Source: a virus
Length of the DNA stretch: 45,115 nucleotides
IMG/VR virus record: IMGVR_UViG_3300045988_060953
Coordinates: 1 to 45,115 of that record
Reading direction: 5' to 3' (one strand)
In this document: piece by piece, positions 1,815 to 34,758 of the stretch
Position numbering within the stretch: position 1 is the first letter of the stretch
Layout of the letters: each line of letters starts with the position of its first letter
Notes under the pieces: model-generated
The model's database searches: none
What the model was told of the DNA's origin: nothing
The model's input: the letters and a program-made list of their open reading frames with translations, nothing else
Position numbers and translations under genes: made by a program

Positions 1815-2393
1815 ATGTTGTACGATGCAAAGAGGATTGCAGCACTCATGGCACAGGCAAGGGAAAGGTCGGGCATTGCGCAAGAGACGCTTGCCGCGCT
1901 GCTGCACGTCAGCCCGCGCACGGTGCAGAGATGGGAGCACGGGGAGAAGCCGCCCACACTGGAAGATTTTATAAACTGGTACAGAGCGTTAAGTTTGAAC
2001 TGGTTTCCAGACGTTCTCCGCCTGGCCCACCCGGAGTTGTACACCGACTTTGACGGCAGCCACGCGGATGTGGAGCAGAGGCGGAACGGGCTGTTTAAAT
2101 ACCTGGCTGATTGCCCGCCGGGGGAGGTTGACAAGCTGGCATTCCTGATCTTCGGCGCGCATGGAAGCGAATGGCCGTCCATGCTGGACGAATACGTTGC
2201 AAACGCCCATTGTAGCATGGCCAGCCGGACAGCCGTGTGCAGGCTGATAATTGACAACTACGAGCTAGAGTCCATCACCGGCGACTTGGTGGAGCCGGAG
2301 AAAGCAAAACCGAACCTGCAAAACCTGCACAGCGCCCACGATGCAGGCAGGCAAGCCGCCCAGATGAAAAAGAACGAGTACACCATGAAATGA
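1815..2393 (+). CDS. Second XRE-family HTH protein with an unknown C-terminal domain, immediately upstream of int
   Basis: 192 aa. RBS AAAGGAGG. HTH GIAQETLAALLHVSPRTVQRWEHGEKPP. About 130 aa of C-terminal sequence with no motif I recognise. Confidence 0.65.
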   Translation: MLYDAKRIAALMAQARERSGIAQETLAALLHVSPRTVQRWEHGEKPPTLEDFINWYRALSLNWFPDVLRLAHPELYTDFDGSHADVEQRRNGLFKYLADCPPGEVDKLAFLIFGAHGSEWPSMLDEYVANAHCSMASRTAVCRLIIDNYELESITGDLVEPEKAKPNLQNLHSAHDAGRQAAQMKKNEYTMK

Positions 2394-2403
2394 GGTGCAA
2401 GCC

Positions 2404-3912: not shown

Positions 3913-6900
3913 TTACCGAGAAGATTTCCAGTTGGACGAACTCGCCGCCCAGAATGCGTCTTTCATGGCATCGCTCATGTCGCTGTCATTCAGCCATGCA
4001 CGGGCCTCGCTCTGGTTAATGCCCGTCTTGCCGTCCGTGTTCGCGTACTTCCGGTAGGCAATCCAGTTCATCAGCCCATCAATGCCATACTGATTGTAGA
4101 TGTCAACGCGCTTCCGCTCTTCGGTGCCAACGGAGAAGTCGGGCACGATGTCCAGAGCTGCAATTTTGCCTGCGGTGCCGTACAGCTCCGGGATAAGCTC
4201 CACTTGCTGCTCTTCGGTGTAGCGAGAATCCAACACGGCTTCTGCCATGTCCTTGCGCAGTTGGCCTTGCTGTGTTGCAAAGTCGGTGTACTCTTGCGGA
4301 GAAAGCTGGTAGGTGTGCTTTTCCTTGTCAACTGTCCAAGACAGCTTCTTTTCGGCAAGCTCCGGAATAACTTCGTCGTTGCCGGTGCTGTTCGCCAGAT
4401 CGAGCAAGCCAAGCTGCACCGGATCGTCCGTGGTTTCGGAATAGTAGCCGGGGGAGAACATGTTGTAGGCAAGACGGCCAACAAAGTTCCCGCCGGGGTT
4501 TTCTTCCGTGTCGCCGAATGCATCAATATACGGTTGGCTGGTTTGCGACAAAAACGGAATTTTGTTCCGCATTTTGTTGGCCGTATAACCCAAGTCTGAT
4601 TCAATGCCGGTCGTGCCGCTATAGGTGCTGCGCCGAATGGGGTCAATGGTTCGGGCAACCTGTCCCAGAGACGTTGGCACATACTGCGTTGCATACCCGG
4701 TAATCGCTTCACGTGTCAATCCAGGAATGAAACCATCTCGGGAATACCGCAGGTTTTCAAACGAGTTGTTCATGCCCTGCAGGAATGTGTTTGTAATAAG
4801 CGGCTCAAGCATGTGCGTTGTCGCATCGTAAATGTCGTTGAGCGATACATCGTCATCCGTCGTCAGGTTTGCAAATTCTGCACCGGCAAGCATTGGGATA
4901 GCCACAGAGTTGGCCCAACTAATGGTGTAACTATGCAGTTTCCCGTTCTCATCCGCTAGTTGGAGGCTGTACTCCTGTCGGCCTTCCATGTCCGCCTTTA
5001 CCTTGTCGTCGTCATCAATTCCGCCGGTGAGCAGTCCCTTGCGTGCCAATATTGCGCCAAGCACGAACAAGCTGGTACCTGTTACAGATGCTGCTGCGTG
5101 GTCAAGCATTACATTGAAATTACCGCTTCCCGTTGCCACCTTTGCGCCTTCTATCGCGGTAGAAGCAAATCCAAGCGGGCTGTACTGCATCGCTTGTTTG
5201 GCAACGTTGATGGGAGTTTTCACGAACGGGAGTTCGCCTTCGGCCAACGCATAAAAGAATTTATGGTGCCAACCGTCCGCTTCGGCAAGGCTGCGCTTTC
5301 CTTTCGCAATGATCGTCGCTGTTTCAGAATCAGCATGGAATGTGTTGATAAACGCCTGTGTCAAAGCATGAGCACGCGCCTTATCAAGGATCTGCATACT
5401 TGCTTCGTCTGTTGCGCTGAAAATGCTTTGGTCTAGGCCGTTTGCCTTGAGGTACTGAGCCAGAGATCGTGCGTAATTGTTTTTCAGACCGGCAACGCCA
5501 AGAACGCCCGCTTGGGTAGACTTGTCGCATTGAGACGTAACCCAGTCTATCGCACTATCCATTTGCTTGTTGATCCCACGCAGGCCATCCAGCATCCCAA
5601 AGAAACCTTTGTAGTCACCACTTTCCAACGACTTCGAGGAAGCTTCGGCCCGTCCGTCTAAATACGCAAACAAGCCCCGAACGATCGTTCCGCTGTCATC
5701 TGTAAGGTGACTTTGCCAGAGGTTCCCCTTTTGCTGCATGGATTGCGCAAAATCAATTTTGTCGCTTCCCGTTGCAAGCTGGCGATAGTTCGCATCTGCG
5801 TCCGCAGCGCAAGCCGAAAGCAACGCACGGCCTTTCGGAGTAAACGCACTAACAATAGATGTCGTGCGTTCAAACCCGGACTTGTCACGCCAATTGTGCT
5901 TCTTTGCAAATGGCAGGTCAAGAACCTTGTTCACAAGGACTTCTTCTCCGGCAAGTACAATGTCTTTCATGCGGGCATTTGCGCCTTGTGTAATGTTGCC
6001 TCCGGCGTTTACAAGGTTTGTGCGAGCGTTGAGAAGCATAGACGTGAACCGCAAAGAATTGATTGTATCCCACCAAGAAGAGGTTACGTTCTTTGCCGCA
6101 ATTGTCGCCGCCTTGTTTTCCAGATCCACCCGCTCCCGGCTGTTTGCGGGCAACGCTTCCGCCTGCTCCGTTAAGTCAAGGATCTGCTGGCACTGCTCCG
6201 CAGTCAAGGGCTGTACGCCAAACTTCGACGCGGCATAGGCTTTCACATCTTCGTTGTCGTAAATGCCCATGCGCAAAAGCCCCAAAAATTGGTCGTGCGT
6301 GGACTTGCTCGTTTTGCCTTTCCCGCCCCGGATGGCTTTCAGGTTTGCGTCCGCCGCTTCTGACAATGCTTTGGAATACTCGTTCATGGCCATTTCGGCA
6401 ATACGTTGTGCTTGCGTGTCGTCCATGTCGAAGGTATCCTGAATGCGCTCCTGAATTTCTCGAAGAGTGGACTGTTTGTCCCTACGCCCTTTTTTGACTA
6501 GGGTCTTGAAGTCAATCCCTTGATCTTTGGTGTACTTGGACACAAGTTGCTTTATTGTATCTTTCCCGTACAAGCCGGATTCTCCGGCATCATTAAAGAA
6601 AGCTTGCAGGCGGCTGCTCATGTCGGCATTGTCTTTATACCTTTCGACAAGTGCTTCCTTTGCCGCTTCCCATGCCTGCGTGTATGTCTCCTGATTGTCC
6701 AATGCGGTTTGCAACTTCTGTTCGACCGTCAGCTTCGGCTTTTTAGGCCGTGCGCCTTTCTCGGTGTCGCTTGTCGCCATTTTGGTCAGCTGGGAAAGCA
6801 TCTCGCTTTGCACAACGTCCTCAACGCTGGCTTCTTTCCCGTCCGTTGCGTACCGATTTACGGCAGCTGCCAGCTTGCGCCCCAACACGTCCTCAACCGA

Positions 6901-17552: not shown

Positions 17553-18860
17553 TCACACATAGCAGATAACGCCATATCCATGCGGTGTACCACCGCCGTA
17601 GTTGCCATCCCATTGCATATAAATGTTTTGGTTTGCAATCACAGAGAACGTAGCAACGTAAAAGTTGTTTCTCATTGGCGTTGCCACAACCTTACTACCA
17701 ATGGTAATTGATTTGATTTGCATATCGTGATTGGCGTTGCCCACGAAGAAGAAAAGCAGAGTACCAGCGGATGGAGTGGTAGCCATCATATGCGTCGAGT
17801 AGTCTTCTGGAATAGATCCATTCCAAACCGCTTTCGTCACACCGGCCCCATTTACGCCCAGCACCGTGTTCCCGGCGCAAAGCTTGCCCGCTGTCAGGCC
17901 GATTGCGCTGGCCACTTTGGCAAAAGTCTCGCCCACATAGCTGTTCCCATCGTAAAATCCAGCAGGAGGCTGCAAGCACAAGCGAGAAACCCCATCAAGG
18001 TTGTTGTTTGTTTGCGTGTTGTTGCTATTCGCTTTGGATACGGCCACCTCTGGAAAATACTGGCTGATTCCTACGGTACCGTTTTGCCCGACGGTGTTGC
18101 GTGGCAGGATTTCACCGGTTTTAAGCGTTTTGTCGCCAGAATAAAACTTTTTGCCAGAAATCACGTCTCCGGTGTCGGCAGTGGCGAGGGCGAGCTTGGT
18201 ATTCGACAGGCCCCCGCCACCATTAAAATTTATCTGCGTACCGTCCTGCGTAAAGGTCAGCCACCGGCCCGTGACGGATTCACCGGCCAGCGCATCGGCA
18301 AAGGTTTCCGCGCCCACATAGGCGGGCACTTCCTTTCCGCCCAGCATCACCGTGTCCCCGGCTTCCACGTCAGCCGTCATCTTGGCGCGGCCGCTTGTGC
18401 CAGAGCCGTTAAAGTGGTGCACGTTGTCCATCTTGGTGTGCGTGTAAGTGCTTACGCCGCGAGAGTCGGCATAGGCGAAGATGTCCCGTTGCCTGTGGGT
18501 CGGGTCATACGTGGCTTGCGTCATATCCGCACTACCAATCTGGTCAATGCGGTCGCTGATTGCTTTTTCTGTCTGGTCTTTTGTATACGCGCCGACCTGT
18601 TCCGCAGTTACATTGTGCGGATTTTCCAGGTTGTCAATGTGGCCTTGCGCTGTGCGGTTTTTGCCTTTGGCGCCGATTTGACTTGCCGCCGAAGGCCCTA
18701 AAAGTTCGTCCACTAGCTGATTGAACTTCGGCACAAGAACTTCCCGTGCTATCTGCTCAAACTTCGCCTGCATCTCGCTTGTGGAAAGGCCGGGCGTATC
18801 GGGCAGCCCCATAACGCCCTTGTCCTTCAAATCTCCGTCTGTGATTTTTGTGAAGGCCAT
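17553..18860 (-). CDS. Tail fibre / tail appendage protein
   Basis: 435 aa. The N-terminus MAFTKITDGDLKDKGVMGLPDTPGLSTSEMQAKFEQIAREVLVPKFNQLVDEL is a typical phage fibre anchor. The C-terminal half shares a module with the 15571-16323 product. Confidence 0.7.
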   Translation of the reverse strand: MAFTKITDGDLKDKGVMGLPDTPGLSTSEMQAKFEQIAREVLVPKFNQLVDELLGPSAASQIGAKGKNRTAQGHIDNLENPHNVTAEQVGAYTKDQTEKAISDRIDQIGSADMTQATYDPTHRQRDIFAYADSRGVSTYTHTKMDNVHHFNGSGTSGRAKMTADVEAGDTVMLGGKEVPAYVGAETFADALAGESVTGRWLTFTQDGTQINFNGGGGLSNTKLALATADTGDVISGKKFYSGDKTLKTGEILPRNTVGQNGTVGISQYFPEVAVSKANSNNTQTNNNLDGVSRLCLQPPAGFYDGNSYVGETFAKVASAIGLTAGKLCAGNTVLGVNGAGVTKAVWNGSIPEDYSTHMMATTPSAGTLLFFFVGNANHDMQIKSITIGSKVVATPMRNNFYVATFSVIANQNIYMQWDGNYGGGTPHGYGVICYV

Positions 18861-19442
18861 TTACCACCACCCACTTTCACTTGTAAATTCCGTGTCGATG
18901 TTTTCTGCCTGCCGGTTTTGCAGGCGCTCAAACGCCGTTTCAAACTCGTTGCGGTACGTTGTCGCAATTGCCAGATCATCGTCCTTGTACAGCTGACTCG
19001 CCATGTACATAGGCAAAAGCGCCGCCGCATCTTCCGGCAGGTCGATTTCTTGCGCGTCCGGCGTGTTCTCTGTGATTCTGGCAGGCTTTGCGTTGTAATA
19101 CACCAGCACAGATTCAATGCCTTTTGGAACCACCAGCAAATGCCCGCCCAGAAGTTTCAAGGACACAGGCCGGGGTTCGTCTCCATCCATACAGTATGTT
19201 TCAAAGTCTCCCACATTAAGGAAGTCAATGAGTTCATCTTCAAGGTCAAACGTTCTGGATTGAGCCGGGTCTTTCGTCAGCGTATCATACGAACGGATGT
19301 GTTTACCCGCATCCGTCGTCGCAATCATCTGGATCGCTTCATTGGCGGCTTGCGGCATTGCCGCGAGATAGTCCTCTGCGCCTTCATCTTCCGAGGTAAA
19401 CATCTTCTGCAAGGTTGCGGTTTTGCATTCTCCCCACGTCAT
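18861..19442 (-). CDS. Head-tail adaptor/connector candidate
   Basis: 193 aa. Start overlaps the portal stop (ATGA). Assignment is from position only. Confidence 0.4.
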   Translation of the reverse strand: MTWGECKTATLQKMFTSEDEGAEDYLAAMPQAANEAIQMIATTDAGKHIRSYDTLTKDPAQSRTFDLEDELIDFLNVGDFETYCMDGDEPRPVSLKLLGGHLLVVPKGIESVLVYYNAKPARITENTPDAQEIDLPEDAAALLPMYMASQLYKDDDLAIATTYRNEFETAFERLQNRQAENIDTEFTSESGWW

Positions 19443-21361
19443 ACGTCTGCCCCCTCCAAATGGTCACTGTCAGTCATGAGCATATCCGGCTGTATTGCTT
19501 GCTGTGCAGCCGGTTGCATGGCAGCCTGTTGCATTTGCTGCTGCTCGTCCATCTGCTGTTTGATTTCGGTTTTTACCTTCCCAGCCCCAGGGAATCCATT
19601 ATCTTCTAGATAAGTCCAGAATCGGTAGCTGGTAGTCAGGTCACCAATCGGGCCAAACGCACCTGCCTGATACTTCACGTCTGCCATATCCCACAGCCGT
19701 TCACGGTTCGCATCCATGTTCGGGGACGGGTCAACGCCAAAAATAAACTCGTCATCCCAGTACAATTCACCGGCGGCATCCCGTTTCAGGAAATCCCACC
19801 GGTTGAAATGGGCGAACGTCTGCTCTCCGCCGATTGCCGTGTAAGTCATCGGGTACGGTTGGTCAGCATAGGCCAACATGTACTTGAAGAGCAGCTTGTA
19901 CAGCCGCCCATACGCCTGATTCTTCATCTCGCGTTTGGACTGCAAACGGCCAGCCGCCTGTTGTGCAGCAAACTGCTTTGCGCTGCCGCTGGTTGCAGAT
20001 GCATCGTACTTGCCCTGATACGAATCGTTAATGCCCAGCGTACTCTTTGCCCAGCTGTAATTGCTTTCCAGCATTTGCTGTTCACGGCTTGTGTCGGGCT
20101 GAACATTGATAACAGAGATCAACGCCTTTTCCGCCGGGTTTTTCAGCCGCATGATTTTCAGCTCTTTGTCGCTGGTTTCAACCTGAACGCCTTGCGGAAG
20201 CGTAACATAGCTGCCGCCTTTGAGCAGCTTCTCTTCAATCTTCGTGCCAAACTTCTTGATCGCGTTTTGCTGATCTTCAATCACATCAACGTCGCTCACG
20301 CCCAAGAAGCGGCCGAACATCCGCACATTGCTGCGGAGAATAACGGGAATTTCTTTCGGCTCGTAGTACGGGATTTGCGTGGGCACGTTCGGGCCGGGCA
20401 TGGTAATAGCCACGCCTTCCTCGTCCACCTGCGGGGTTCCGTCCGGGTTCATCACAAGTTCGTCTTTACCCGGGGTGCTTGCCGCAACAGTTTCACCGCC
20501 AAAAATGGTGATGTCCGCGGTCAGCTCTTGCACATCCAGCGGGCCTTCCACGAACTTTTTGCTGCCGCACTCGCACACATCTCCGGACTTCGGGCGGCCG
20601 CATTTCGCGCACACCTCGCCGCGCCGTTTCTGGCAGTTGTCCAAATCTTCCAGAGTTACGTCTCCGCACCAGCTGTACATGCCAACGCCGCCTTCATCGT
20701 TACGATAATACGCGATATTTTGAGTAACAATGCCACTTACAGAACTCGGATTCTGCCCTCTGGCCGCCACATCATCCTCTGTTTCATCCTTGATTTCAAC
20801 GCCGTACCGCCGTTCAAGGTAGCGTTTCGGCTGGCTTACAAGAATGAAAATGTACTCCATCTTGTCGATGTCGTACACGCCGGGCTGCGGAATAACCTGC
20901 TTCGGGTGGCGCTCTGTCAGCGTTACGTCGCCCAACATACAGTGGTATCCGCCGTGCGGGTCCCACTCAACGTGAAAAAAGTCGCCGCCCTGAATGGGGA
21001 CGGTTCGCTCTTGCAGGTCGTTCAGCTCTTTCAGGTTGAGCTGCTTGCTCAGGTTCAGCAACAGAGCCTCAATCTTTTTTGCAAGCTCTTTGTCCTCTTC
21101 GTGGATAGCTGTGACGCGGGGGGCGGGGATAGAGGAATCCACCTGGCTTTCGATCAGCTCGTACACGATGTTGCGGACGTTGGTTGCCTTTTTTTCTGCG
21201 TCTGTACCGTTTGCGCCACGAATGTTTTTGTCGCCACGATACAGCGCTTCGCGGGTATCCATAATGGTGCGGTCGTACTGCTTTCTTGCGTCATCCAGCC
21301 GACTTTGCCATTTCCCCCGCTTTGTGGCATCGTCAGCAGCGTGTTTCAGCTTCTCGAACAT
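19439..21361 (-). CDS. Portal protein
   Basis: 640 aa. RBS GGAGGAG. N-terminal KATNVRNIVYELIESQVDSSIPAPRV-type portal motif. Acidic, Q-rich C-terminus. The size fits a portal. Confidence 0.65.
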   Translation of the reverse strand: MFEKLKHAADDATKRGKWQSRLDDARKQYDRTIMDTREALYRGDKNIRGANGTDAEKKATNVRNIVYELIESQVDSSIPAPRVTAIHEEDKELAKKIEALLLNLSKQLNLKELNDLQERTVPIQGGDFFHVEWDPHGGYHCMLGDVTLTERHPKQVIPQPGVYDIDKMEYIFILVSQPKRYLERRYGVEIKDETEDDVAARGQNPSSVSGIVTQNIAYYRNDEGGVGMYSWCGDVTLEDLDNCQKRRGEVCAKCGRPKSGDVCECGSKKFVEGPLDVQELTADITIFGGETVAASTPGKDELVMNPDGTPQVDEEGVAITMPGPNVPTQIPYYEPKEIPVILRSNVRMFGRFLGVSDVDVIEDQQNAIKKFGTKIEEKLLKGGSYVTLPQGVQVETSDKELKIMRLKNPAEKALISVINVQPDTSREQQMLESNYSWAKSTLGINDSYQGKYDASATSGSAKQFAAQQAAGRLQSKREMKNQAYGRLYKLLFKYMLAYADQPYPMTYTAIGGEQTFAHFNRWDFLKRDAAGELYWDDEFIFGVDPSPNMDANRERLWDMADVKYQAGAFGPIGDLTTSYRFWTYLEDNGFPGAGKVKTEIKQQMDEQQQMQQAAMQPAAQQAIQPDMLMTDSDHLEGADV

Positions 21362-27361: not shown

Positions 27362-27435
27362 TGGTTGGGCTGGCAGGTGTCGAACCTGCTATGTGGGAGT
27401 CAAAGTCCCATGCCTTACCGTTTGGCCACAGCCCA
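27362..27435 (-). tRNA. tRNA-Gln(TTG), CCA encoded
   Basis: Hand-folded: acceptor TGGGCTG/CAGCCCA; D arm GCC-AAACGGTAA-GGC; anticodon arm TGGGA-CTTTGAC-TCCCA; T arm GCAGG-TTCGACA-CCTGC; A-CCA. Confidence 0.85.
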
Positions 27436-27539: not shown

Positions 27540-27615
27540 TGGAGCCGCCAGAAGGACTCGAACCCTCGACCTGCTGCTTACAAGACAGCCGCTCTACCAA
27601 CTGAGCTATGACGGC
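27540..27615 (-). tRNA. tRNA-Thr(TGT), CCA encoded
   Basis: Hand-folded: acceptor GCCGTCA/TGGCGGC; D arm GCTC-AGTTGGTA-GAGC; anticodon arm GCTGT-CTTGTAA-GCAGC; T arm GAGGG-TTCGAGT-CCTTC; T-CCA. Confidence 0.85.
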
Positions 27616-28607: not shown

Positions 28608-28928
28608 TTATGTGTCTTGTCTTGCCTGCCTGATAGCGTCAGCTAGCAGCCGTGCTGCCGCCTGTGCTGGTGTCTCGCCGTCAGCCTCTAGGCCCTGGAC
28701 TGCATCCGATCTCAGGCTAAGCCGGATCCGGTCGCCGTCTTCGGTGGCCTGTGCGCCGTGGGCCATCCGTGCCCGGACTGCCGCGAGCACGTACCCTTGT
28801 AGGCTCTGCCCGGCTGCCGCTGCCGCCGCTCTGATGCTCTCGCCCTCAGGGCGCAGCGGCTTTATCATGATCTGATCACACTTTGCATTATATTTTGCGT
28901 TGCCGCGTCGTTTTGCCTCGCTTTGCAT
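28608..28928 (-). CDS. Ribbon-helix-helix (Arc/CopG-like) DNA-binding protein
   Basis: 106 aa. KYNAKCDQIMIKPLRPEGESIRAAAAAAGQSLQGYVLAAVRARM fits the beta-alpha-alpha RHH pattern. First gene after the minus-strand promoter at 28952-28981. Confidence 0.6.
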   Translation of the reverse strand: MQSEAKRRGNAKYNAKCDQIMIKPLRPEGESIRAAAAAAGQSLQGYVLAAVRARMAHGAQATEDGDRIRLSLRSDAVQGLEADGETPAQAAARLLADAIRQARQDT

Positions 28929-28951
28929 GGTTATACCTCCTTATATAGGAG

Positions 28952-28981
28952 AGTATACCACGCTCCACCGGTTCCCGTCAA
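28952..28981 (-). promoter_or_regulatory. Sigma70-type promoter for the RHH-terS transcript
   Basis: Minus strand reads TTGACG (28981..28976), 18 nt, TATACT (28957..28952). Confidence 0.6.
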
Positions 28982-29070
28982 CGTGTACAAACTGCACAAT
29001 TTCCCGTTAACCGATTTGTGAGATTCTCCAAACTTCCCGTTAACGGGTTGACAACATACACGCTAACGGG
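28972..29070. promoter_or_regulatory. Array of TTCCCGT(C/T)AAC repeats, including the palindrome CCCGTTAACGGG
   Basis: Direct copies at 28972, 29001 and 29034. Perfect 12-bp palindrome at 29036-29047 abutting the -35 of the plus promoter. An inverted half-site TAACGGG at 29064-29070 lies inside that promoter's spacer. Confidence 0.7.
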
Positions 29071-29076
29071 TATACT
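29048..29076 (+). promoter_or_regulatory. Sigma70-type promoter of the plus-strand island
   Basis: TTGACA (29048-29053), 17 nt, TATACT (29071-29076). Confidence 0.75.
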
Positions 29077-29128
29077 CTAGTCATAGCAAGCGACACAGGG
29101 CCGCAAGCAGAAGAGCAAGGAGGACGAC

Positions 29129-29467
29129 ATGAGCAAAGCACTTACCACCGAAGAGCTCATCAAAAAGATGGCGTGGCACGTATCCCGCGAGGTCAAGCAC
29201 TACGCCTCCGACTTTGAGATCGACCGCGCCCAGCTGACCGAGGCCGTCGAAACTGGCCGCTATGGTCAGTACATCTGGATCACCCGCAACTGCGGCACGC
29301 ATCTCGTGCCGGTCGGTATCGCAGCCACAGACCCCGACCAAAGCGCCGAGCTGCTGGCAGCTATCCGGCGCACATGGTCGGACGCCGAGCGCCGCGAGTA
29401 CTGCATCACCCTGGGCCCCTGCAGCCACTCTTTCCAGCCCCTCCGGCAGAGGGAGGCGCAAGCATGA
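29129..29467 (+). CDS. Hypothetical protein (island gene 1)
   Basis: 112 aa. RBS AAGGAGGA. No motif recognised. Confidence 0.55.
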   Translation: MSKALTTEELIKKMAWHVSREVKHYASDFEIDRAQLTEAVETGRYGQYIWITRNCGTHLVPVGIAATDPDQSAELLAAIRRTWSDAERREYCITLGPCSHSFQPLRQREAQA

Positions 29468-29556
29468 GACTCACCCGCATAGAGTGCCTGGCTTTGGGCT
29501 TTGCCTGGGGGCTTACGCTCCCGGTGCTATGGCTCCATTGCCTGGGCATGATCTAA
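29464..29556 (+). CDS. 30-aa hydrophobic peptide (island gene 1b)
   Basis: ATGA-coupled to gene 1. MRLTRIECLALGFAWGLTLPVLWLHCLGMI. Its stop (CTAAGA) is the 5' edge of intergenic repeat copy A, exactly as in copy C. Confidence 0.4.
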   Translation: MRLTRIECLALGFAWGLTLPVLWLHCLGMI

Positions 29557-29587
29557 GATCCGCAAGGCCGGCGCATAACGCGCCGCA
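29554..29587 (+). ncRNA. Structured intergenic element, copy A (5' module only)
   Basis: CTAAGATCCGCAAGGCCGGCGCATAACGCGCCGC shares the 5' module and first hairpin (CGGCGC-ATAAC-GCGCCG) with copies B and C, then diverges. Confidence 0.5.
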
Positions 29588-29683
29588 TCTAACCCCGGCA
29601 CCCGGACACTTTAGCAGGGCTGCACCGACTAAAGCAACCTCGCCCCATCGTCCCAAAAACAAACACAAACGGAGGTACACAAA

Positions 29684-29899
29684 ATGGCATGGCTTTACAT
29701 CCCCGCCGAGACAGGCGAACGCCTCGAAACCATCTGCGATCAGCACTACAACCCCGGACGCGGCGCGTGTGACTGCCCGCTCTGGCCCGCCTGCAGCTAC
29801 TCGAACGATCTCACAAAATCCAGCGCAGAGAACACCCGCATTTTTGAGCAGGGCATGGCCGCCGCTCTGGCCGCTCTCGACGACGAAAACAGGAGGTAA
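29684..29899 (+). CDS. Hypothetical protein (island gene 2)
   Basis: 71 aa. RBS ACGGAGGT. Cys motif GACDCPLWPAC. Confidence 0.55.
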   Translation: MAWLYIPAETGERLETICDQHYNPGRGACDCPLWPACSYSNDLTKSSAENTRIFEQGMAAALAALDDENRR

Positions 29900-29904
29900 A
29901 CAAA

Positions 29905-30189
29905 ATGGCATCCATTGAACGCAAAATCCCCGGCATCCACGCCGACAAGCCCGGAGAGTACGCCTACTGCTACGAGATGCAGCAGGCCCCCACAGGCTGC
30001 GACCACTCCGCCGATCTTTCCTTTTATGGCAAGCACTACTTCCTGCGCCCCCTGCGTGACGACCTGCCCCCGCTCCATGGGCGCGGCATTACCTACGACG
30101 CAGCAGATGGCACCTACATGGTCACGCTCCGCGCCTATGACAAGATCAAAGCGCAATACAAGGTCAAGCGCGAAACTTGCCTTGATTGA
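29905..30189 (+). CDS. Hypothetical protein (island gene 3)
   Basis: 94 aa. RBS CAGGAGGT. Confidence 0.55.
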   Translation: MASIERKIPGIHADKPGEYAYCYEMQQAPTGCDHSADLSFYGKHYFLRPLRDDLPPLHGRGITYDAADGTYMVTLRAYDKIKAQYKVKRETCLD

Positions 30190-30260
30190 CCCGCAAGGCC
30201 GACGCATAACGCGCCGCTGGTGCAAGTCCAGCCGCCCATCCGGGCGGGCGCTCATGGGTT
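30187..30260 (+). ncRNA. Structured intergenic element, copy B
   Basis: TGACCCGCAAGGCC-[GACGC ATAAC GCGCC]-[GCTGG TGCAAGT CCAGC]-[CGCCC ATCC GGGCG]-GGCGCTCATGGGTT. Starts at the stop codon of gene 3. Confidence 0.6.
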
Positions 30261-30297
30261 GAAAGCCCTACCGCAACGCCACAAAGGAGGACACATC

Positions 30298-30654
30298 ATG
30301 AAAAGACTTTTTACCCGCGAGGACGTCACCCCGTACCGCCGGGACTACACCGCCACCGTGCCCACCGCGAAGGGTGAGCGCCTCATGGTGGAGCTTATCC
30401 GCTGCGAGGACTGCAAGAGCCCGCGCTCTACTGCCGCTATCTGGTACAAGCGCGGATACACAAATACCCGGCTTGCATCCTGGTGGGCCGTGGACACATA
30501 CGCCACGGAGCCAGACGGCAGCTGCTGGGGCCGGTATAACCCCACCCACATCCCCGGAGAGAACAAGCTCAATTTTGAGTGGGTTCTCCCCGCGACCGAG
30601 GAGAATGCCGAGAAAATTCTGGCCGAGGTTGCCCGGCTGGCGGGCATCGTGTAA
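30298..30654 (+). CDS. Hypothetical protein (island gene 4)
   Basis: 118 aa from ATG 30298 (RBS AAAGGAGGA). WWAVDTYATEPDGSCWGRYNP motif of unknown function. Confidence 0.55.
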   Translation: MKRLFTREDVTPYRRDYTATVPTAKGERLMVELIRCEDCKSPRSTAAIWYKRGYTNTRLASWWAVDTYATEPDGSCWGRYNPTHIPGENKLNFEWVLPATEENAEKILAEVARLAGIV

Positions 30655-30658
30655 GTAA

Positions 30659-30686
30659 ATAGGGAGGGGCTTCCGCCTCTCCCTAT
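30659..30686 (+). terminator. Strong hairpin (12-bp stem, no U-tract) separating two sub-operons of the island
   Basis: ATAGGGAGGGGC-TTCC-GCCTCTCCCTAT with one G-U pair. Confidence 0.45.
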
Positions 30687-30805
30687 CCTCACACCATAAA
30701 TATATCACATTCACGTGCGTTTTTGTAGTGTGGGTAGCTGTTCCCAACTGTTGCATTTGCAACGGCTGCACAAAAAAGAATCTCAAAATTTAGGCAAATT
30801 GCGAA

Positions 30806-30834
30806 TTGCACCACCACCCAATGGGTGGTATAGT
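30806..30834 (+). promoter_or_regulatory. Internal island promoter with an operator palindrome in its spacer
   Basis: TTGCAC (30806-11), 17 nt, TATAGT (30829-34). The spacer contains CCACCCA-A-TGGGTGG (30814-30828). A second palindrome GTTGCATTTGCAAC lies at 30750-30763. Confidence 0.65.
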
Positions 30835-30878
30835 GTGGACAACGAGGAAGCCAAACGAAAAAACAGGAGGACAAAGCA

Positions 30879-31082
30879 ATGACGAAGATTAAAGACGGCT
30901 GGCACCGCATTTGCGGCGCAGATGTGTACGTGGAGAATGGACGCATCCTGCGCGGCCTGAAGAACGGCGGCACGGAGCCCGCTTACCCCTACAAGCCGGC
31001 ATCGAAGAAGTACGGCGGCGGCTGGGACATCGGCACCCCGTCCGTGTCGGCATTCCGTCGCGGTCCCTGGGTACTCATGTAA
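30879..31082 (+). CDS. Hypothetical protein (island gene 5)
   Basis: 67 aa. RBS CAGGAGGA. Confidence 0.55.
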   Translation: MTKIKDGWHRICGADVYVENGRILRGLKNGGTEPAYPYKPASKKYGGGWDIGTPSVSAFRRGPWVLM

Positions 31083-31101
31083 AGAGGAAGGAGAACAGAC
31101 G

Positions 31102-31365
31102 ATGAAAAAAGCCGAGTTGAAAGACGTTGCCACCCGGTACGGGATGGGCATTATCCGCGAGGAAGTCACAAGCAAAGGCGTCGGGCTGTACCTCGTGACT
31201 GAGGAGGACATCCCGGAGCTGGATGCCCTAGCCAGCACACCCCCGTTTTCCGCAGCGCCGGGAGCGGTGGACGCAACGAAAGAATACAGCCCGTGCGACA
31301 ACACCCATACTTACCGCGTCTACTGCCCCTCAAACTGGTTTGACCTGTGGGGATGGGCAGACTAA
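31102..31365 (+). CDS. Hypothetical protein (island gene 6)
   Basis: 87 aa. RBS GGAAGGAGAA. Confidence 0.55.
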   Translation: MKKAELKDVATRYGMGIIREEVTSKGVGLYLVTEEDIPELDALASTPPFSAAPGAVDATKEYSPCDNTHTYRVYCPSNWFDLWGWAD

Positions 31366-31438
31366 GACCCGCAAGGCCGACGCGCAAGCGCCGCCGGTGC
31401 AAGCCCGGCCACCCCGTAAGGGTGGGCGCTCATGGGTT
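31363..31438 (+). ncRNA. Structured intergenic element, copy C
   Basis: TAAGACCCGCAAGGCC-[GACGC GCAA GCGCC]-[GCCGG TGCAAGC CCGGC]-[CACCC CGTAA GGGTG]-GGCGCTCATGGGTT. Hairpins 2 and 3 each differ from copy B by a compensatory base-pair change. Confidence 0.6.
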
Positions 31439-31462
31439 ATCCAAAAGAAGGAGGAAAGAACC

Positions 31463-31882
31463 ATGAAAACAGAAATCGTCGTCTCCATTGGGGGCGCTGT
31501 CAAGCGTTCGCCCAACCGTGAACCGGACGAGTTCGCCTACTTCACGCAGGTGTGCGGTTTTTCGTTCACTGCGCTCCCCGTACCTGACGGGTGGCAATGG
31601 AACATTGGCTTCCAGGGGGACGCGCCGCACCGCAAAAGAGTGACAATCTCCCTGCCGGACTTCATTCTCAAGGACAAGGTATGGGAGTTGCATTCTGAGT
31701 ACCGCACGGACGACGGGCTCGGAGACCTTGTCGTAATCACTTGCGACCCCGTCCGCGTGTGCGGAAGCGTGGAGGCGGCAATAGATGCAGCGGTCAAAAC
31801 GATTGTTGTGTCCGCGCCCACAAAGTCAGGCAAGCGGGAAAATATCCCGTTTACCATCGAGGCAGTATCACCCATCTGGTGA
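31463..31882 (+). CDS. Hypothetical protein (island gene 7), anti-CRISPR candidate by position
   Basis: 139 aa from ATG 31463 (RBS GAAGGAGGAAA). Its stop lies 4 nt before the solitary CRISPR repeat. Confidence 0.55.
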   Translation: MKTEIVVSIGGAVKRSPNREPDEFAYFTQVCGFSFTALPVPDGWQWNIGFQGDAPHRKRVTISLPDFILKDKVWELHSEYRTDDGLGDLVVITCDPVRVCGSVEAAIDAAVKTIVVSAPTKSGKRENIPFTIEAVSPIW

Positions 31883-31885
31883 TGT

Positions 31886-31918
31886 GTCGTCCCCCGTGCG
31901 GGGGACGTGGATTGAAAC
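31886..31918 (+). CRISPR. Solitary type I-C-like CRISPR repeat unit (no array, no cas genes)
   Basis: GTCGTCCCCCGTGCGGGGGACGTGGATTGAAAC, 33 nt. 8-bp stem CGTCCCCC/GGGGGACG with loop GTGC and a GTGGATTGAAAC tail, as in known I-C repeats (for example GTCGCGCCCCGCACGGGCGCGTGGATTGAAAC). Single copy, in sense orientation within the operon. Confidence 0.85.
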
Positions 31919-31944
31919 AAGATATCAACAGGAGGAAATCAAGA

Positions 31945-32262
31945 ATGTGGAACAAAGCAGAACTTTTTGCAATGGCCCAAGAGCAGCCGAAGGAAATCTT
32001 TAAAAGCAATGTAACCCTGAGCATCCCGGACAACGCGCCGGGCTGTGTTGATCTCGACGCAGAAACCGAACGCTTGTCCCGCTTTTGGGACGTTGCGCAC
32101 ATGACTGTGCGGGAACTCGCAGAAGCCACCGGAATGAGCCAATCTGCCTTTGCCCGGGCCGCTTGCATCCCTCTGCGCACCATGCAAAACTGGTGCGGGG
32201 CGCAGCGGAATTGCCCGGATTATATCCGCTTTTTGTTGGCGGAACATTTCGGGCTGATCTAA
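31945..32262 (+). CDS. HTH regulator, Aca-like (anti-CRISPR-associated type) by context
   Basis: 105 aa. RBS AGGAGG at 31931-36. HTH MTVRELAEATGMSQSAFARAACIPLRTMQNWCGAQRNCPDYIRFLL, the XRE/antitoxin-type pattern IP.RT.QNWE.G.R.P. Confidence 0.6.
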   Translation: MWNKAELFAMAQEQPKEIFKSNVTLSIPDNAPGCVDLDAETERLSRFWDVAHMTVRELAEATGMSQSAFARAACIPLRTMQNWCGAQRNCPDYIRFLLAEHFGLI

Positions 32263-32265
32263 AGT

Positions 32266-32290
32266 GAGGCGCGGGGGTGTCCCGCGCCTC
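32266..32290 (+). terminator. GC-rich hairpin (attenuator-like) after the HTH gene
   Basis: GAGGCGCGGG-GGTGT-CCCGCGCCTC followed only by TT. Confidence 0.4.
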
Positions 32291-32311
32291 TTGTCAAAAG
32301 GAGGTGCACCC

Positions 32312-33046
32312 ATGCCGAAGGCGCAAAAGAAGTACGAATTCACCGGTGAAACGAAAGAATTTTCCGGACACACCCTGCACCGCATCCGCGCAGTGCGGGA
32401 TTTTGACAACGAGGCTTGCCATGTAAAGGCGGGAGACCTGGGCGGGTGGATTGAAAGCGATAAAAACCTCGACCAAGACTATACCGCATGGGTCACAGAC
32501 GAGGCCATGGTTTACGGAAAAGCATCAGTCGCCGAAGAGGCGTTGGTGTCAGGGCATGCGCAAGTCTTTGGCGAAGCCATTGTAACAGGTGGCGCAGTGG
32601 TCACCGACAACGCCCGCATTTTCGGTGACGCGTTTATATTGGACTTTGTGAAAATTTACGGCGACACCCAATTTTGCGGTGATACAATGGTGTCCGATGC
32701 AGTGTATGACCACGGCATCGTGATGCATACAGCCGAGCGAGACGTGAAGATGTACTTTATCCGGGAGCCGGGTGTTGTGTGGAACGGCGAATGCTCTCGC
32801 GACGCAATCACCGATGACGGGCGTTACATGGAGATCACGTGCAAAGCCCCAGACTTAAAGCGAAAACCGGGCGAAAGTGAGGACGAGTACGAGGCCCGCT
32901 TGATTGACGCCACAGAATGGGAAACTCCCATCCGAGTTACTGACATCCACAAAGGCGGAAAGCGGACCGTCGTTGCGGAAAATGGCAGTGCAACATTTTC
33001 TCCGCTGTGCTCCGGCATCACTGTATGGCACCCGGATGAAGAATAA
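32312..33046 (+). CDS. Beta-helix repeat protein (hexapeptide-like A-x-V-x-G repeats), function unknown
   Basis: 244 aa from ATG 32312 (RBS AAAGGAGGTG). KAGDLGGWIESDKNL then VYGKASVAEEALVSGHAQVFGEAIVTGGAVVTDNARIFGDAFI. Confidence 0.55.
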   Translation: MPKAQKKYEFTGETKEFSGHTLHRIRAVRDFDNEACHVKAGDLGGWIESDKNLDQDYTAWVTDEAMVYGKASVAEEALVSGHAQVFGEAIVTGGAVVTDNARIFGDAFILDFVKIYGDTQFCGDTMVSDAVYDHGIVMHTAERDVKMYFIREPGVVWNGECSRDAITDDGRYMEITCKAPDLKRKPGESEDEYEARLIDATEWETPIRVTDIHKGGKRTVVAENGSATFSPLCSGITVWHPDEE

Positions 33047-33066
33047 CATTTAAGATCAAGCAAAAC

Positions 33067-33102
33067 AAAAGAGGTCACAACCTTTCGGCTGCGACCTCTT
33101 TT
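33067..33102. terminator. Bidirectional terminator between the convergent island and early operon
   Basis: AAAAGAGGTC...GACCTCTTTT stem flanked by an A-tract and a T-tract. Confidence 0.7.
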
Positions 33103-33103
33103 G

Positions 33104-33511
33104 TTATTTGTCCAGATTTTTTACAGCGGACCGATGCAAAGCATATACCCAGTCGATGCTGTAGCCGCACTTCTCCGCGACCTGCTGCCATGTGCAGCCG
33201 TCCACGTACCGCATTGCAAGCACGGTTCGCTCCGTCCTGCTTTCCAGCTTTTTCAGCGCGTCCGAAATTTCGATCAGCGCGGCCTTTGCCTCTGCCATGG
33301 CCTGGTTTGCATCCTCGCGTATGGCTTCGATCCGCTCCACCGCCGCCGGGATGTGGTCGCTTGTGCCGCCGCGTCCCAGAGTAGACGACACGCTGGCCGT
33401 GCACTTCGTGGCTTGCGTGTTGGCCTCTTCCAGCCGGGCGGTTGCCATGCGGTAGTCGCTCAGCGCGTCCTGATACCGTCTCAGCCATGCTTTGCGCTCA
33501 TCATAAGTCAC
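33104..33511 (-). CDS. Sigma-70 region-4-like late transcriptional regulator (DUF1492/ArpU-RinA-like class)
   Basis: 135 aa from GTG 33511 (RBS AAGGTGA). C-terminus ERTVLAMRYVDGCTWQQVAEKCGYSIDWVYALHRSAVKNL is a region-4 HTH. Last gene of the early operon. Confidence 0.65.
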   Translation of the reverse strand: MTYDERKAWLRRYQDALSDYRMATARLEEANTQATKCTASVSSTLGRGGTSDHIPAAVERIEAIREDANQAMAEAKAALIEISDALKKLESRTERTVLAMRYVDGCTWQQVAEKCGYSIDWVYALHRSAVKNLDK

Positions 33512-33710
33512 TAGGATCACCTTCTTTCTTCGGCTTTTCGGCCGCGAAAAGCTCAATCACCTGCGCGGCCCGCTCGGTCATCTTTGGGATGCACAGCTCA
33601 GGGTTTGGCCCCCGATAGTAAGCGCACCCCTTGCAGTCGTCCACCGTGCGGGCCTTACCGCAGCGGCGCAGAGCATCCGCCAGTTGTGCAAAAGTGATGT
33701 AGTCGCTCAT
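33501..33710 (-). CDS. Hypothetical Cys-containing protein
   Basis: 69 aa from ATG 33710, ATGA-coupled. Contains CGKARTVDDCKGCAYY. Confidence 0.45.
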   Translation of the reverse strand: MSDYITFAQLADALRRCGKARTVDDCKGCAYYRGPNPELCIPKMTERAAQVIELFAAEKPKKEGDPSDL

Positions 33711-34204
33711 ACCTCGCACCCCTTTTCACTTTTGTGCATAATTGTCCAGATGCAGCACATCACATTCCAGCAAAACGCCCGGTCGTGCGGCTCGTCCCAG
33801 TCTCCGCGCCGCCATTTAAGATAGTGCCGTACCGCGCTGTCAATGTAGCAATCGACCGGCAGCCCCTTTTCCCAGTTGCGTTCGCCGTACTTCTTCGCGC
33901 CGTCCTCCATGTGTTTCGAGACTTCCAGCAGCATGGTGGGCGTATCCCACTTTCTTTCGTAGCAAAACGCTGACACTGCTTGTTTCAGGTGCGCCAGCTT
34001 TCGGCTTTCCATGAAGCAGCTCATGTGGTACAGTACAGAGCATGGGTTGATGAAACTCGCTGCCACATCCAGCGGCAGCAGGTCGCAACGCCCTTTCCCC
34101 TCCGCCATGTCTCTAACCGCGCCGGTCGCGTACTCCCGGCGATCTCCGCTGTCTTTAATCATTGCTTGTTCTCCTCCCGAAGCCGTGTTGATGCAATCAT
34201 TCAT
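33707..34204 (-). CDS. DUF5664 / MazG-like all-alpha NTP-pyrophosphohydrolase-type protein
   Basis: GKGRCDLLPLDV...AKKYGERNWEKGLPVDCYIDSAVRHYLKWRRGDWDEPHDRAFCWNVMC matches the phage DUF5664 pattern (D.GK.R.DLLP...KYG..NW..G...RH...W..G). Start at 34204 (ATGA-coupled) or 34162. Confidence 0.5.
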   Translation of the reverse strand: MNDCINTASGGEQAMIKDSGDRREYATGAVRDMAEGKGRCDLLPLDVAASFINPCSVLYHMSCFMESRKLAHLKQAVSAFCYERKWDTPTMLLEVSKHMEDGAKKYGERNWEKGLPVDCYIDSAVRHYLKWRRGDWDEPHDRAFCWNVMCCIWTIMHKSEKGCEV

Positions 34205-34758
34205 CGTCCCGCACCCTCCGGTTTTAATTCCTCCACATAGCACCAACTCTGGGGCGGTTTTTTTACAATGCAATCTTGGCACGTCCCGCAATTTGGAATT
34301 GCAAAACCCAAGTCGTTGTATTTGCATTCCCGGTTCCACGGTTTGAACCGGTTGAGCTGTTTCGGGTCATCGTAGATTTCCAGCTTGGAAATGTGCCAAG
34401 CGTACCCGTCCTTACCGCCCAGGTATTTTTCAATTTGGGGCGTTGTTAGGCAGCTTTCGGAAAAGTCAAAGGAATCATCTATCGTGTGCCCGTTTTTCAT
34501 CGCGGCTAGCCGAATCCCAGGCAACCCGGAAAAACCGATGTGAGTTAGCCATGTGATCTTGTCGCAAAAGAACTCCCCAACAACCTTCCCGTGTTTTCCC
34601 CACATTCCCATTGCAACGCCGCTATTGGTGCAGTAGATATGGCACTTAAACGGCGTTCCCATATTTGGACGGGTCTTTCTGACTTCTAGTGTCTTTTCTC
34701 CGGCCAGAATCTTTTCCACCCACTCCGGGCGGATGCTGATAAGTACCGCTTTAGCCAT
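34201..34758 (-). CDS. ASCH domain protein
   Basis: 185 aa from ATG 34758. AVLISIRPEWVEKILAGEKTLEVRKTRP is the ASCH N-terminal signature. Confidence 0.7.
   Translation of the reverse strand: MAKAVLISIRPEWVEKILAGEKTLEVRKTRPNMGTPFKCHIYCTNSGVAMGMWGKHGKVVGEFFCDKITWLTHIGFSGLPGIRLAAMKNGHTIDDSFDFSESCLTTPQIEKYLGGKDGYAWHISKLEIYDDPKQLNRFKPWNRECKYNDLGFAIPNCGTCQDCIVKKPPQSWCYVEELKPEGAGR

Follow-up and report, generated by a model that had tools for sequence, protein, structure and literature searches.

Helix-turn-helix (HTH) repressors of the Aca type—Aca1, Aca2 and Aca10—bind inverted repeats in the promoters of anti-CRISPR (Acr) genes (PMC9410881). RacrIC1, an RNA specified 11 nucleotides (nt) 3' of acrIC5 and made as part of one transcript with it, inhibits type I-C CRISPR systems (PMC10651486). 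In prophages, hammerhead ribozymes form clusters around single genes that vary in identity; one such gene is ardA, which acts against restriction, and cleavage takes place in vivo (PMC3088659). Why hammerhead, twister, twister-sister, pistol and hatchet ribozymes adjoin recurring phage genes has been an open question since 2011-2015; a 2019 review regarded the reason for these associations as undetermined and noted that processing of polycistronic mRNA had been proposed (PMC6765202). The locus analysed here, a plus-strand island of ten short genes (g1 to g10) at about 29-33 kb of the viral genome IMGVR_UViG_3300045988_060953, has features of each of these systems. The whole 45,115-nt stretch is referred to as the window, and all coordinates are those of this stretch.

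The island consists of two small operons, g1-g5 transcribed from promoter P1 and g6-g10 from promoter P2, in a temperate phage with a host range of Oscillospiraceae-type gut Clostridia. Our preferred reading, to which we assign a probability of roughly 0.58, is that ribozymes mark the junctions of swappable genes in this two-operon island and that operon 2 is anti-CRISPR-like. The locus places twister-sister ribozymes and the RAGATH-5 RNA motif in an operon with independent anti-CRISPR marks, namely a CRISPR repeat mimic, an Aca-like regulator with its operator, and host spacers matching the phage. A preliminary description of this DNA had presented the whole island as a single candidate anti-defence locus of acr-aca architecture. 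That architecture finds independent support in operon 2 (P2 and g6-g10), but it does not extend to the island as one locus, as P1 has other operators, which co-vary with a divergent ribbon-helix-helix (RHH) gene. The ribozymes, the RAGATH-5 motif and a ribozyme remnant had been overlooked.

Ribozymes at the junctions of exchangeable genes

An Rfam scan of the whole window returned five RNAs, two of which are tRNAs outside the island and three of which lie inside it. The latter are given below together with a truncated twister-sister copy, for which Rfam gave no match even at E<5.

29557 to 29586, plus strand: truncated twister-sister of which the 5' 30 nt are left; these match the beginning of TS1 at 93% identity over 30 nt
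29602 to 29654, plus strand: RAGATH-5 RNA motif, a ribozyme-associated intergenic RNA, 5' of g3 (RF02685, 61.5 bits against a cut-off of 50, E 8e-8)
30186 to 30264, plus strand: TS1, twister-sister ribozyme of the four-way-junction type (RF02681, 79.9 bits, E 6e-17)
31364 to 31442, plus strand: TS2, twister-sister ribozyme (RF02681, 78.1 bits, E 2e-16)

TS1 and TS2 cover model positions 1-81 of 81, with a gathering cut-off of 34 bits for RF02681, and the Rfam scan found neither a twister-sister nor a RAGATH-5 RNA in the 45-kb genome outside the island. The ribozymes occupy spacers between open reading frames (ORFs) that seem empty: the final base of the stop codon of g4 is also the first of stem P1 of TS1, and stem P1 of TS2 begins 1 nt past the stop codon of g7. 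The crystallised four-way-junction twister-sister is cut at the C62-A63 step in UC^AU (PMC5660989). By homology with this step, TS1 is predicted to be cut at C30253/A30254 and TS2 at C31431/A31432, which would leave leaders of 44 nt and 31 nt, each with a ribosome-binding site (RBS), ahead of the start codons of g5 and g8, respectively.

The ten twister-sister copies found in the phage and its relatives share an invariant core, consisting of the GCAAG loop, the GGUGCAAG loop and the GCUCAU strand with its C-A step. Pairing is canonical at 98.1% of 160 pair positions (26-45% in slid controls), and there are three compensatory pair changes, from C:G to G:C in P3, from U:A to C:G in P4 and from G:C to A:U in P5. 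This degree of pairing, together with the compensatory changes, indicates that the folded RNA is under selection. TS2 is present in every relative. The 30-nt remnant, which retains the P1 5' strand, the GCAAG loop, the P2 5' strand and the P3 hairpin, is presumably inactive as a ribozyme.

Comparison with the relatives (L121-L130, found via g9) shows where the ribozymes lie with respect to gene exchange. They share the frame g1-g2 ... g6-g7-twister-sister-g8-repeat-g9-g10, and it is the middle that varies:

window and L121: g3, g4 and g5
L122 and L123: genes of 130 and 82 amino acids (aa)
L124 and L128: genes of 105 and 81 aa

Relatives that span the junction have a full twister-sister right after g2, where the window has only 30 nt, and homology between the window and its relatives ends at 29574-29586, inside this ribozyme, to restart at 30657. 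The intervening block 29592-30191 (RAGATH-5, g3 and g4) is 79-90% identical to another phage lineage (L084, L011 and L045) and, judged by this identity, is foreign. Depending on the genome, the slot 5' of the block in that lineage is filled by a twister-sister or by a type II hammerhead. TS1 and the ribozyme after g2 in L123 share 94% identity, and the genes on either side are unrelated. Genes have also been acquired, one of 117 aa between TS2 and g8 in L123 and one of 83 aa in L125, and each came with a hammerhead ribozyme of its own. The remnant and the full TS1 form a direct repeat around the foreign block. By this comparison, each exchangeable unit is an RBS, an ORF and a ribozyme, with ribozymes as the common linkers. 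The remnant fused to RAGATH-5 is a recombination or deletion scar, since only two of the 190 RAGATH-5 copies among the matches listed have such a motif upstream. A composite ribozyme made of the twister-sister 5' half and RAGATH-5 was considered and rejected on that count, on the full twister-sister at this site in relatives, and on the lack of any Rfam match covering the composite.

RAGATH-5 itself recurs in a similar setting. A core pattern search of IMG/VR gave at least 120 viral contigs and 190 copies, with up to 8 per locus, among the matches listed, to which all counts in this paragraph refer. RAGATH-5 always lies between same-strand genes, at a median of 7 nt past a stop codon and with the next start codon at a median of 52 nt after the core, and a twister-sister is present on the same strand in 24 of the 120 loci. 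We found no mention of RAGATH-5 in a literature search. The commonest gene right after the motif (27 of 143 distinct proteins) encodes a 542-aa protein with the N6-adenine methyltransferase motifs EPSAGDGAL and NPPF and with DUF4942 (E 9e-39); these point to an orphan methylase such as phages use against restriction. DUF4942 on this methyltransferase-like protein was the only hit when proteins 3' of RAGATH-5 were scanned for anti-defence domains, and we claim no enrichment.

A repeat mimic and a candidate autorepressor in operon 2

The elements of operon 2 that bear on an anti-CRISPR role are the following.

30806 to 30834, plus strand: P2, TTGCAC-17-TATAGT with a TG extended -10 and the palindrome CCACCCAATGGGTGG at 30814-30828 in its spacer
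31463 to 31882, plus strand: g8, 139 aa, mostly beta-strand (AlphaFold pLDDT 84.9)
31886 to 31918, plus strand: solitary type I-C repeat mimic, an RNA anti-CRISPR (Racr) candidate, GTCGTCCCCCGTGCGGGGGACGTGGATTGAAAC, in sense orientation within the operon
31945 to 32262, plus strand: g9, 105 aa, C-terminal half with an Xre-type HTH (AlphaFold pLDDT 90.8)

The repeat lies 3 nt past the g8 stop codon and 26 nt ahead of the g9 start codon. As the preliminary description had it, it is solitary, being single-copy in the 45 kb with up to 3 mismatches allowed, and there are no cas genes in the window. It folds into a hairpin of -17.9 kcal/mol (z -3) and matches Rfam CRISPR-DR9 at 25.2 bits, below the cut-off. 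All 15 family loci that span the g8/g9 junction have a repeat there, in sense orientation. The repeat itself is an already catalogued Racr candidate and no new discovery: it is listed at the same coordinates as UGV-GENOME-0293773_31886_31918 and DTR_880546_31886_31918, typed I-C (PMC10651486 supplement, Camara-Wilpert et al. 2023). A scan of genomes (one per species) with a loosened repeat pattern gave 94 loci, mostly true Clostridia arrays, among which each of the main variants has its own close counterparts:

window: one base from the array repeat of L169, a Eubacteriales genome
L125 (stem TCCTCC/GGAGGA, loop ACAC): one base from the arrays L158, L167, L177 and L200
L236 and L239 (loop GCAC): one base from the arrays L148, L150, L190 and L192

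The repeat varies in this way while the neighbouring g9 keeps 90-97% identity, and changes in its stem are compensatory. By these matches it is a mimic of type I-C array repeats; the L158 array adjoins cas3, cas5, cas8c (Csd1, 592 bits), cas7, cas4 and cas1, which identifies type I-C. Repeats of the phage family end in GAAAC (L125 excepted) and the matching host arrays L169, L148 and L150 in GAAAT, a consistent difference at position 31918, where the 5'-handle region has its last base. Solitary type I-C repeats also occur elsewhere, in L240 and L243, and an unrelated viral contig, L237, has a two-repeat type I-C mini-array (6129-6228, plus strand) with a solitary repeat on the other strand (4369-4402, minus strand).

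When the 1236 spacers extracted from the matched arrays were compared with the window, two protospacers emerged, with their protospacer-adjacent motifs (PAM):

18265 to 18299, minus strand: protospacer of L158 / SFJO01000020 (Oscillospiraceae), 34/35 matches, PAM TTT, in ORF 17553-18860
20807 to 20841, minus strand: protospacer of L167 / CAKSWY010000029 (Oscillospiraceae), 33/35 matches, canonical PAM TTC, in ORF 19439-21361

Neither ORF has a Pfam match. By their origin, such spacers indicate that the hosts are of Oscillospiraceae type and that their type I-C immunity targets the phage family.

Since only 3 nt separate its stop codon from the repeat mimic, g8 is the prime candidate for an anti-CRISPR protein; g6 and g7 are candidates by position only. 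A fold search of the PDB with g8 gave no match at E<=0.001. The protein is restricted to this phage family: among 1.84 billion proteins, it numbers 21 clusters (90% identity) and 24 representatives (50% identity). Three distant members are longer. Two of them, P0366 and P0382, have an N-terminal Xre/Cro-type HTH (Pfam), and the third, of 207 aa, is listed in BFVD as an HTH regulator (TM 0.91). Fusion to an N-terminal HTH is also the arrangement of AcrIIA1-type Acr-regulator proteins. Homologs of g9 elsewhere are preceded by a 115-117-aa gene, and the ideas that g8 or the 117-aa gene of L123 corresponds to it were both rejected for want of similarity.

The assignment of g9 to the XRE type is borne out by its predicted fold: the model is all-helical, and its C-terminal ~50 aa superpose at ~2 Å on Xre-type HTH proteins, including HigA2, C-proteins, Aca1 and Aca10. 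Its Pfam matches are all below the curated cut-off, and no match to a solved Aca protein is significant, the best being Aca10 (7xi5) with E 0.73 for the single sequence and 0.21 for a profile. Unrelated phages have homologs with 55-63% identity, placed last or second to last in short operons whose small cargo genes differ. These operons have an operator in common with P2. The core CAC[G/C]CAATG[C/G]GTG lies in the -35/-10 spacer of the g9-homolog operons L225-L230, with variants in L231-L235, and is found only at these promoters (window, L122, L125 and L226-L230, where the pattern matched). The following promoters illustrate this.

Window, P2: TTGCACCACCACCCAATGGGTGGTATAGT
L225: TTGCACGCGATGCGTATAAAAT
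L226: TTTGCACGCAATGCGTGTATAAT
L229: TTGCACGCAATGCGTATAAAAT, plus a second copy
L235: TTGCACCATATTGGTGTAATCT

Between L226 and the window, the operator core differs by a symmetric pair of changes. In L235, the g9 homolog P0237 (57% identical) lies 13 nt 3' of a homolog of AcrVA2, a validated anti-CRISPR; this homology was confirmed against PDB 7ci1 (E 2e-9) after a precomputed match to PF26125 (AcrVA2-like) could not be reproduced with local Pfam. Operator co-inheritance and this neighbour, a case of guilt by association, make g9 a candidate Aca-like autorepressor of P2. The gene that follows g9 homologs differs between phages, and g10 was rejected as a conserved partner of g9. Two further observations concern these homologs. 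L221 has one with a solitary repeat 2.8 kb off on the other strand, which is uninformative, and a DUF3800-VIII RNA (RF03075, 68-85 bits) lies on the opposite strand 3' of the homologs in L225 (5333-5396, minus strand) and L226 (5329-5392, minus strand). This RNA is also present in the RAGATH-5 loci L045 (14401-14467) and L084 (1373-1439) and is absent from the window.

Island layout, operon 1 and neighbouring genes

The outline drawn by the preliminary description stood up: a plus-strand island amid minus-strand genes, bounded by a divergent promoter region and a bidirectional terminator, with ten short ORFs of 30-244 aa and strong RBSs, among them one for a beta-helix protein. Positive AT skew is confined in the window to 29001-33000 and 2001-3000, the latter being a lysogeny module with two HTH genes and an integrase, and the large ORFs outside these two regions are all on the minus strand. 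Each of the ten island ORFs (112, 30, 71, 94, 118, 67, 87, 139, 105 and 244 aa) is preceded by an AGGAGG-type RBS, and in L121, a near-identical contig, gene callers arrive at this same set of ten. Each of the nine ORFs that were looked up (g1 and g3-g10) falls in a protein cluster of between 36 and 963 sequences, which come mostly from gut phage contigs of ~44-46 kb. A blastn comparison of the island with 50,697 GenBank phage records gave just one weak match of 256 bp. The remaining features of the island and its left boundary are these.

28608 to 28928, minus strand: divergent RHH-like gene, 106 aa, an ORF whose orthologs in relatives match NikA-like and TacA1 proteins (weak)
28952 to 28981, minus strand: P(-), promoter of the RHH and packaging genes, sigma-70-like TTGACG-18-TATACT, 10/12 matches, with TG
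28998 to 29049, no strand assigned: operator-like repeats AATTTCCCGTTAACCGATT and AACTTCCCGTTAACGGGTT, with the core palindrome CCCGTTAACGGG; the second copy abuts the -35 of promoter P1
29048 to 29076, plus strand: P1, promoter of operon 1, TTGACA-17-TATACT, 11/12 matches
29129 to 29467, plus strand: g1, 112 aa, no significant family match
29464 to 29556, plus strand: g2, 30 aa, hydrophobic, called in L121-L124 and L128; start codon and g1 stop codon overlap in ATGA
29684 to 29899, plus strand: g3, 71 aa, cysteine-rich; 94% identical homologs lie 3' of RAGATH-5 in 9 other viral contigs
29905 to 30189, plus strand: g4, 94 aa; most members of its 90% cluster have 147 aa
30298 to 30654, plus strand: g5, 118 aa, in the variable cassette slot
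30659 to 30686, plus strand: 12-bp GC-rich hairpin after g5, -21.9 kcal/mol, z -5.6, no U-tract
30879 to 31082, plus strand: g6, 67 aa, phrog_33937 (unknown function, E 3e-8), no PDB match
31102 to 31365, plus strand: g7, 87 aa, acidic; L125 has a 114-aa gene instead
32312 to 33046, plus strand: g10, 244 aa, N-terminal ~140 aa a YdcK-type beta-solenoid, phrog_5070 (E 5e-42)
33064 to 33105, both strands: bidirectional intrinsic terminator at the island end, with 19-nt arms at 33064-33082 and 33087-33105

Folding energies of the terminator are -24.7 kcal/mol (z -7) for the plus strand and -31.8 kcal/mol (z -8) for the minus strand, and either strand has a U-tract. The two promoters had both been called consensus-like, which holds for P1 but less so for P2, whose -35 (TTGCAC) matches at 3/6 positions and which has an extended -10 (TGgTATAGT) and was missed by a promoter scanner. 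The hairpin after g5, which is invariant in the alignment and kept in all relatives, may serve to stabilise a 3' end or as a weak terminator. The g4 of the window may be shortened, or other g4s may be called from an upstream start. Searches of Pfam, PHROGs, PADLOC and NCBIfam gave no informative match for g1 and g3-g7. The beta-solenoid of g10 runs through its N-terminal 140 aa; the protein matches NCBIfam YdcK_fam at E 4e-16, below the cut-off, and has 1385 homologs, many with PF18836. Its C-terminal ~100 aa are specific to the phage family.

Operon 1 appears to have a regulator of its own. L122 has different repeats, of the GCATATATG type, at the position of the CCCGTTAACGGG operators, and the RHH proteins of the window and L122 have diverged over their N-terminal 60 aa and remain ~95% identical at the C-terminus, so that operators and N-terminus differ in parallel. 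This covariation suggests that the RHH protein, rather than g9, is probably the regulator of the P1/P(-) region. The RHH gene and its operators (28608-29076) look like an exchangeable specificity module for operon 1 and the packaging-side promoter.

Several genes outside the island are of interest in their own right. Just beyond its end, the gene at 33707-34339 (minus strand) has a dATP/dGTP diphosphohydrolase N-terminal domain (PF18909), and the relatives L121, L125 and L127 have genes for Lar-type restriction-alleviation, Dam methylase and SprT-like proteins nearby, which points to further counter-defence or nucleotide-modification functions beside the island on the minus strand. The two tRNA genes, tRNA-Gln(TTG) at 27362-27435 and tRNA-Thr(TGT) at 27540-27615, both on the minus strand, lie between the gene for the large terminase and one of 158 aa. 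L122 and L124 have kept the pair, and one is present in L128, whose contig ends nearby. The largest ORF of the genome (3913-11100, minus strand, 2395 aa) has no Pfam match at E<0.01 and, by position, is presumably a tail or host-interaction protein.

Proposed mechanism, alternatives and known systems

The mechanism that we infer, which covers in vivo cleavage, any insulation, the repressor roles of g9 and the RHH protein, and every anti-CRISPR activity, would work as follows. Operon 1 would probably be controlled by the divergent RHH protein from the CCCGTTAACGGG operators, and operon 2 would probably be auto-repressed by g9 binding to the CCACCCAATGGGTGG palindrome. The twister-sister ribozymes would cut the polycistronic transcripts during synthesis, leaving each upstream mRNA with a protective 3' end—a compact ribozyme fold and a 2',3'-cyclic phosphate—and giving g5 and g8 fixed short 5'-OH leaders with an RBS. 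Each cassette would then be an independent mRNA, translated and stabilised independently of the cassette upstream, and such insulation would explain both why ribozyme classes are interchangeable and why they lie beside fast-swapping accessory genes. Stem P1 starts where the upstream ORF stops, so that ribosomes terminating there would cover it; translation of that ORF and cleavage may thus be coupled. In operon 2, the repeat would be transcribed as an RNA decoy of the Racr type, bound and processed by Cas5c and other Cascade subunits as for RacrIC1, g8 and perhaps g6 and g7 would inhibit type I-C proteins, and g9 would shut off P2 after an early burst.

A bolder version, which we consider doubtful, would make ribozymes and RAGATH-5 the natural junction modules of anti-defence cassettes that gut phages exchange, acting as RNA insulators and DNA linkers, and would add a repressor circuit responsive to Cas5c. 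During type I-C processing, Cas5c cuts 11 nt from the 3' end of the repeat. The TS2 cut at 31431/31432 and a Cas5c cut at ~31907/31908 would together release a g8 mRNA with the Racr hairpin as its 3' end. The same Cas5c cut would detach the g9 mRNA, leaving it with a 5' handle like that of a CRISPR RNA, and the level of g9, hence the output of the operon, would respond to active type I-C in the infected cell.

Several results weigh against the reading that we prefer. First, searches of Pfam, PHROGs, PADLOC and NCBIfam assigned no island protein to a family of Acr, anti-defence or defence proteins, and a sequence search of the PDB with g5-g9 gave nothing significant. Second, the HTH-g8 fusions also fit a g8 that is the sensor or oligomerisation domain of a regulator. 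Third, the palindrome CCACCCA-A-TGGGTGG, perfect in the window as first described, has one mismatch in five relatives (it is imperfect in 5/6 family members), and inverted repeats of this size are common: the window has 23, about one per 2-3 kb, where simulations give 13.4 +/- 4.1. Fourth, the guilt by association sought for g9 comes down to one locus for AcrVA2, the other contexts having only uncharacterised small cargo genes. Fifth, the repeat of the window is 6 edits from that of L158/L167, the arrays whose spacers match the phage. Sixth, RAGATH-type motifs outside the three named ribozyme classes showed no cleavage in tests (PMC6765202). Finally, the g9-homolog operons L225-L235 have no ribozymes, so that ribozymes were rejected as general companions of such operons, and most RAGATH-5 loci among the matches listed have neither a repeat nor g9. 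Ribozymes and anti-CRISPR features can thus occur apart, and their joint presence here may be incidental.

Two alternatives deserve to be taken most seriously, although we hold both to be unlikely. In one, the whole island is a classical acr-aca locus in which g9 represses the island promoters, the ORFs are Acr proteins and the RNAs are passengers. The promoter palindrome with an HTH gene downstream, the repeat mimic with the type I-C spacers, and the g9 homolog beside an AcrVA2 homolog are all as this would have it. However, the P1 operators are of a different type and co-vary with the RHH protein instead of g9, a g9-type operator is present at P2 only, and g1-g5 have no link to CRISPR, while passenger RNAs would be expected neither to be under RNA-level selection nor to lie exactly at cassette junctions. 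In the other, which is improbable to a similar degree, the island is a generic "moron" region serving lysogenic conversion, superinfection exclusion or host takeover, and the repeat is a recombination relic or site. The lack of a recognisable anti-defence domain in any protein would suit this, as would the membership of g10 in a very widespread beta-solenoid family of unknown function, and recombination or other roles have also been proposed for viral solitary repeats (PMC10651486). Yet a relic would hardly keep the same junction and sense orientation in 15 of 15 loci, nor show compensatory changes in its stem, and decay would not bring the main variants each to match a different real repeat while g9 stays 90-97% identical. 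The spacers, too, show type I-C pressure on the phage.

It is very unlikely, in our view, that the ribozymes are mainly DNA-level linkers through which phages recombine, or selfish elements that spread along with the genes next to them, and that their cleavage brings no benefit in expression. Breakpoints do lie inside or at the edge of ribozymes, the remnant and TS1 form a direct repeat around the foreign block, TS1 is common to otherwise unrelated flanks, and ribozyme classes are interchangeable at one slot. However, the compensatory changes and the invariant catalytic core betoken selection on a folded RNA, and the presence of unrelated classes (twister-sister and hammerhead) in the same slot argues that it is cleavage that is selected, an argument also made in PMC6765202. 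The RNA and DNA roles are not exclusive, and a dual role is likely. That g9-g10 is a toxin-antitoxin or self-contained regulatory pair unrelated to CRISPR is scarcely credible: the best HTH fold matches of g9 include HigA2 and other Xre antitoxins and g10 follows directly, but g9 homologs elsewhere are last in their operons or precede unrelated proteins (such as a 258-aa protein in L229 that is unlike g10), and g10 has no toxin domain.

If the two-operon reading with an anti-CRISPR-like operon 2 is true, ribozyme positions could serve to find new anti-defence genes in uncultured phages. The locus is also a testable system, with host clade, CRISPR type, protospacers and predicted cleavage sites defined. 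Every component is of a known kind, in that ribozymes and RAGATH-5 are found in prophage clusters, the I-C repeat is catalogued and the layout is acr-aca-like. We found no description in a literature search of an anti-CRISPR together with self-cleaving twister RNAs in one operon, or of scars inside a ribozyme.

A close parallel is the acr-racr operon of a Bifidobacterium pseudocatenulatum prophage, which has an AcrIC5 homolog and RacrIC1 (PMC10651486). In both, a single I-C-like repeat without cas genes lies a few nt 3' of a small gene of the phage (11 nt in the prophage, 3 nt in the window), on the strand and in the operon of that gene, and is near-identical to host repeats. The differences are that g8 has no similarity to known Acr proteins, that an HTH regulator gene follows the repeat in the same operon, and that a twister-sister cut is predicted just 5' of g8. 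With acr-aca operons, operon 2 shares an Xre-type HTH gene 3' of small variable cargo, an inverted repeat in the promoter, and an HTH family that recurs with different cargo, once beside an AcrVA2 homolog. Unlike the solved Aca proteins, g9 has no detectable sequence kinship with them and has an extra N-terminal helical part of ~45 aa, and unlike in acr-aca operons, it is followed by a further gene, g10.

The RNA side of the locus resembles the hammerhead clusters (Perreault et al. 2011, PMC3088659), in which same-strand ribozymes flank single genes or blocks of varying identity, and, as far as the summary in PMC6765202 reports them, the twister, twister-sister and RAGATH neighbourhoods of Weinberg et al. 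2015, with which it shares interchangeable classes and a Clostridia prophage setting. Unlike the published ribozyme clusters, the operon described here also has a CRISPR repeat mimic and an Aca-like regulator, and a scar lies inside a ribozyme, with a 30-nt remnant fused to RAGATH-5. A likeness can also be drawn to RiboJ, reportedly described by Lou and colleagues in 2012, which is said to be a synthetic insulator in which a self-cleaving ribozyme just 5' of the RBS removes variable upstream RNA. Both would give the downstream gene a fixed short leader; RiboJ is engineered, whereas for the phage such a natural purpose is what the arrangement suggests. Lastly, the junctions recall the boundary sequences that, in connection with the modular theory of Susskind and Botstein, are said to lie at mosaic module junctions in lambdoid phages. 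In both cases, short conserved intergenic sequences lie between unrelated genes and at breakpoints, but the linkers of this island are, unlike lambdoid boundary sequences, predicted catalytic RNAs under structural selection.

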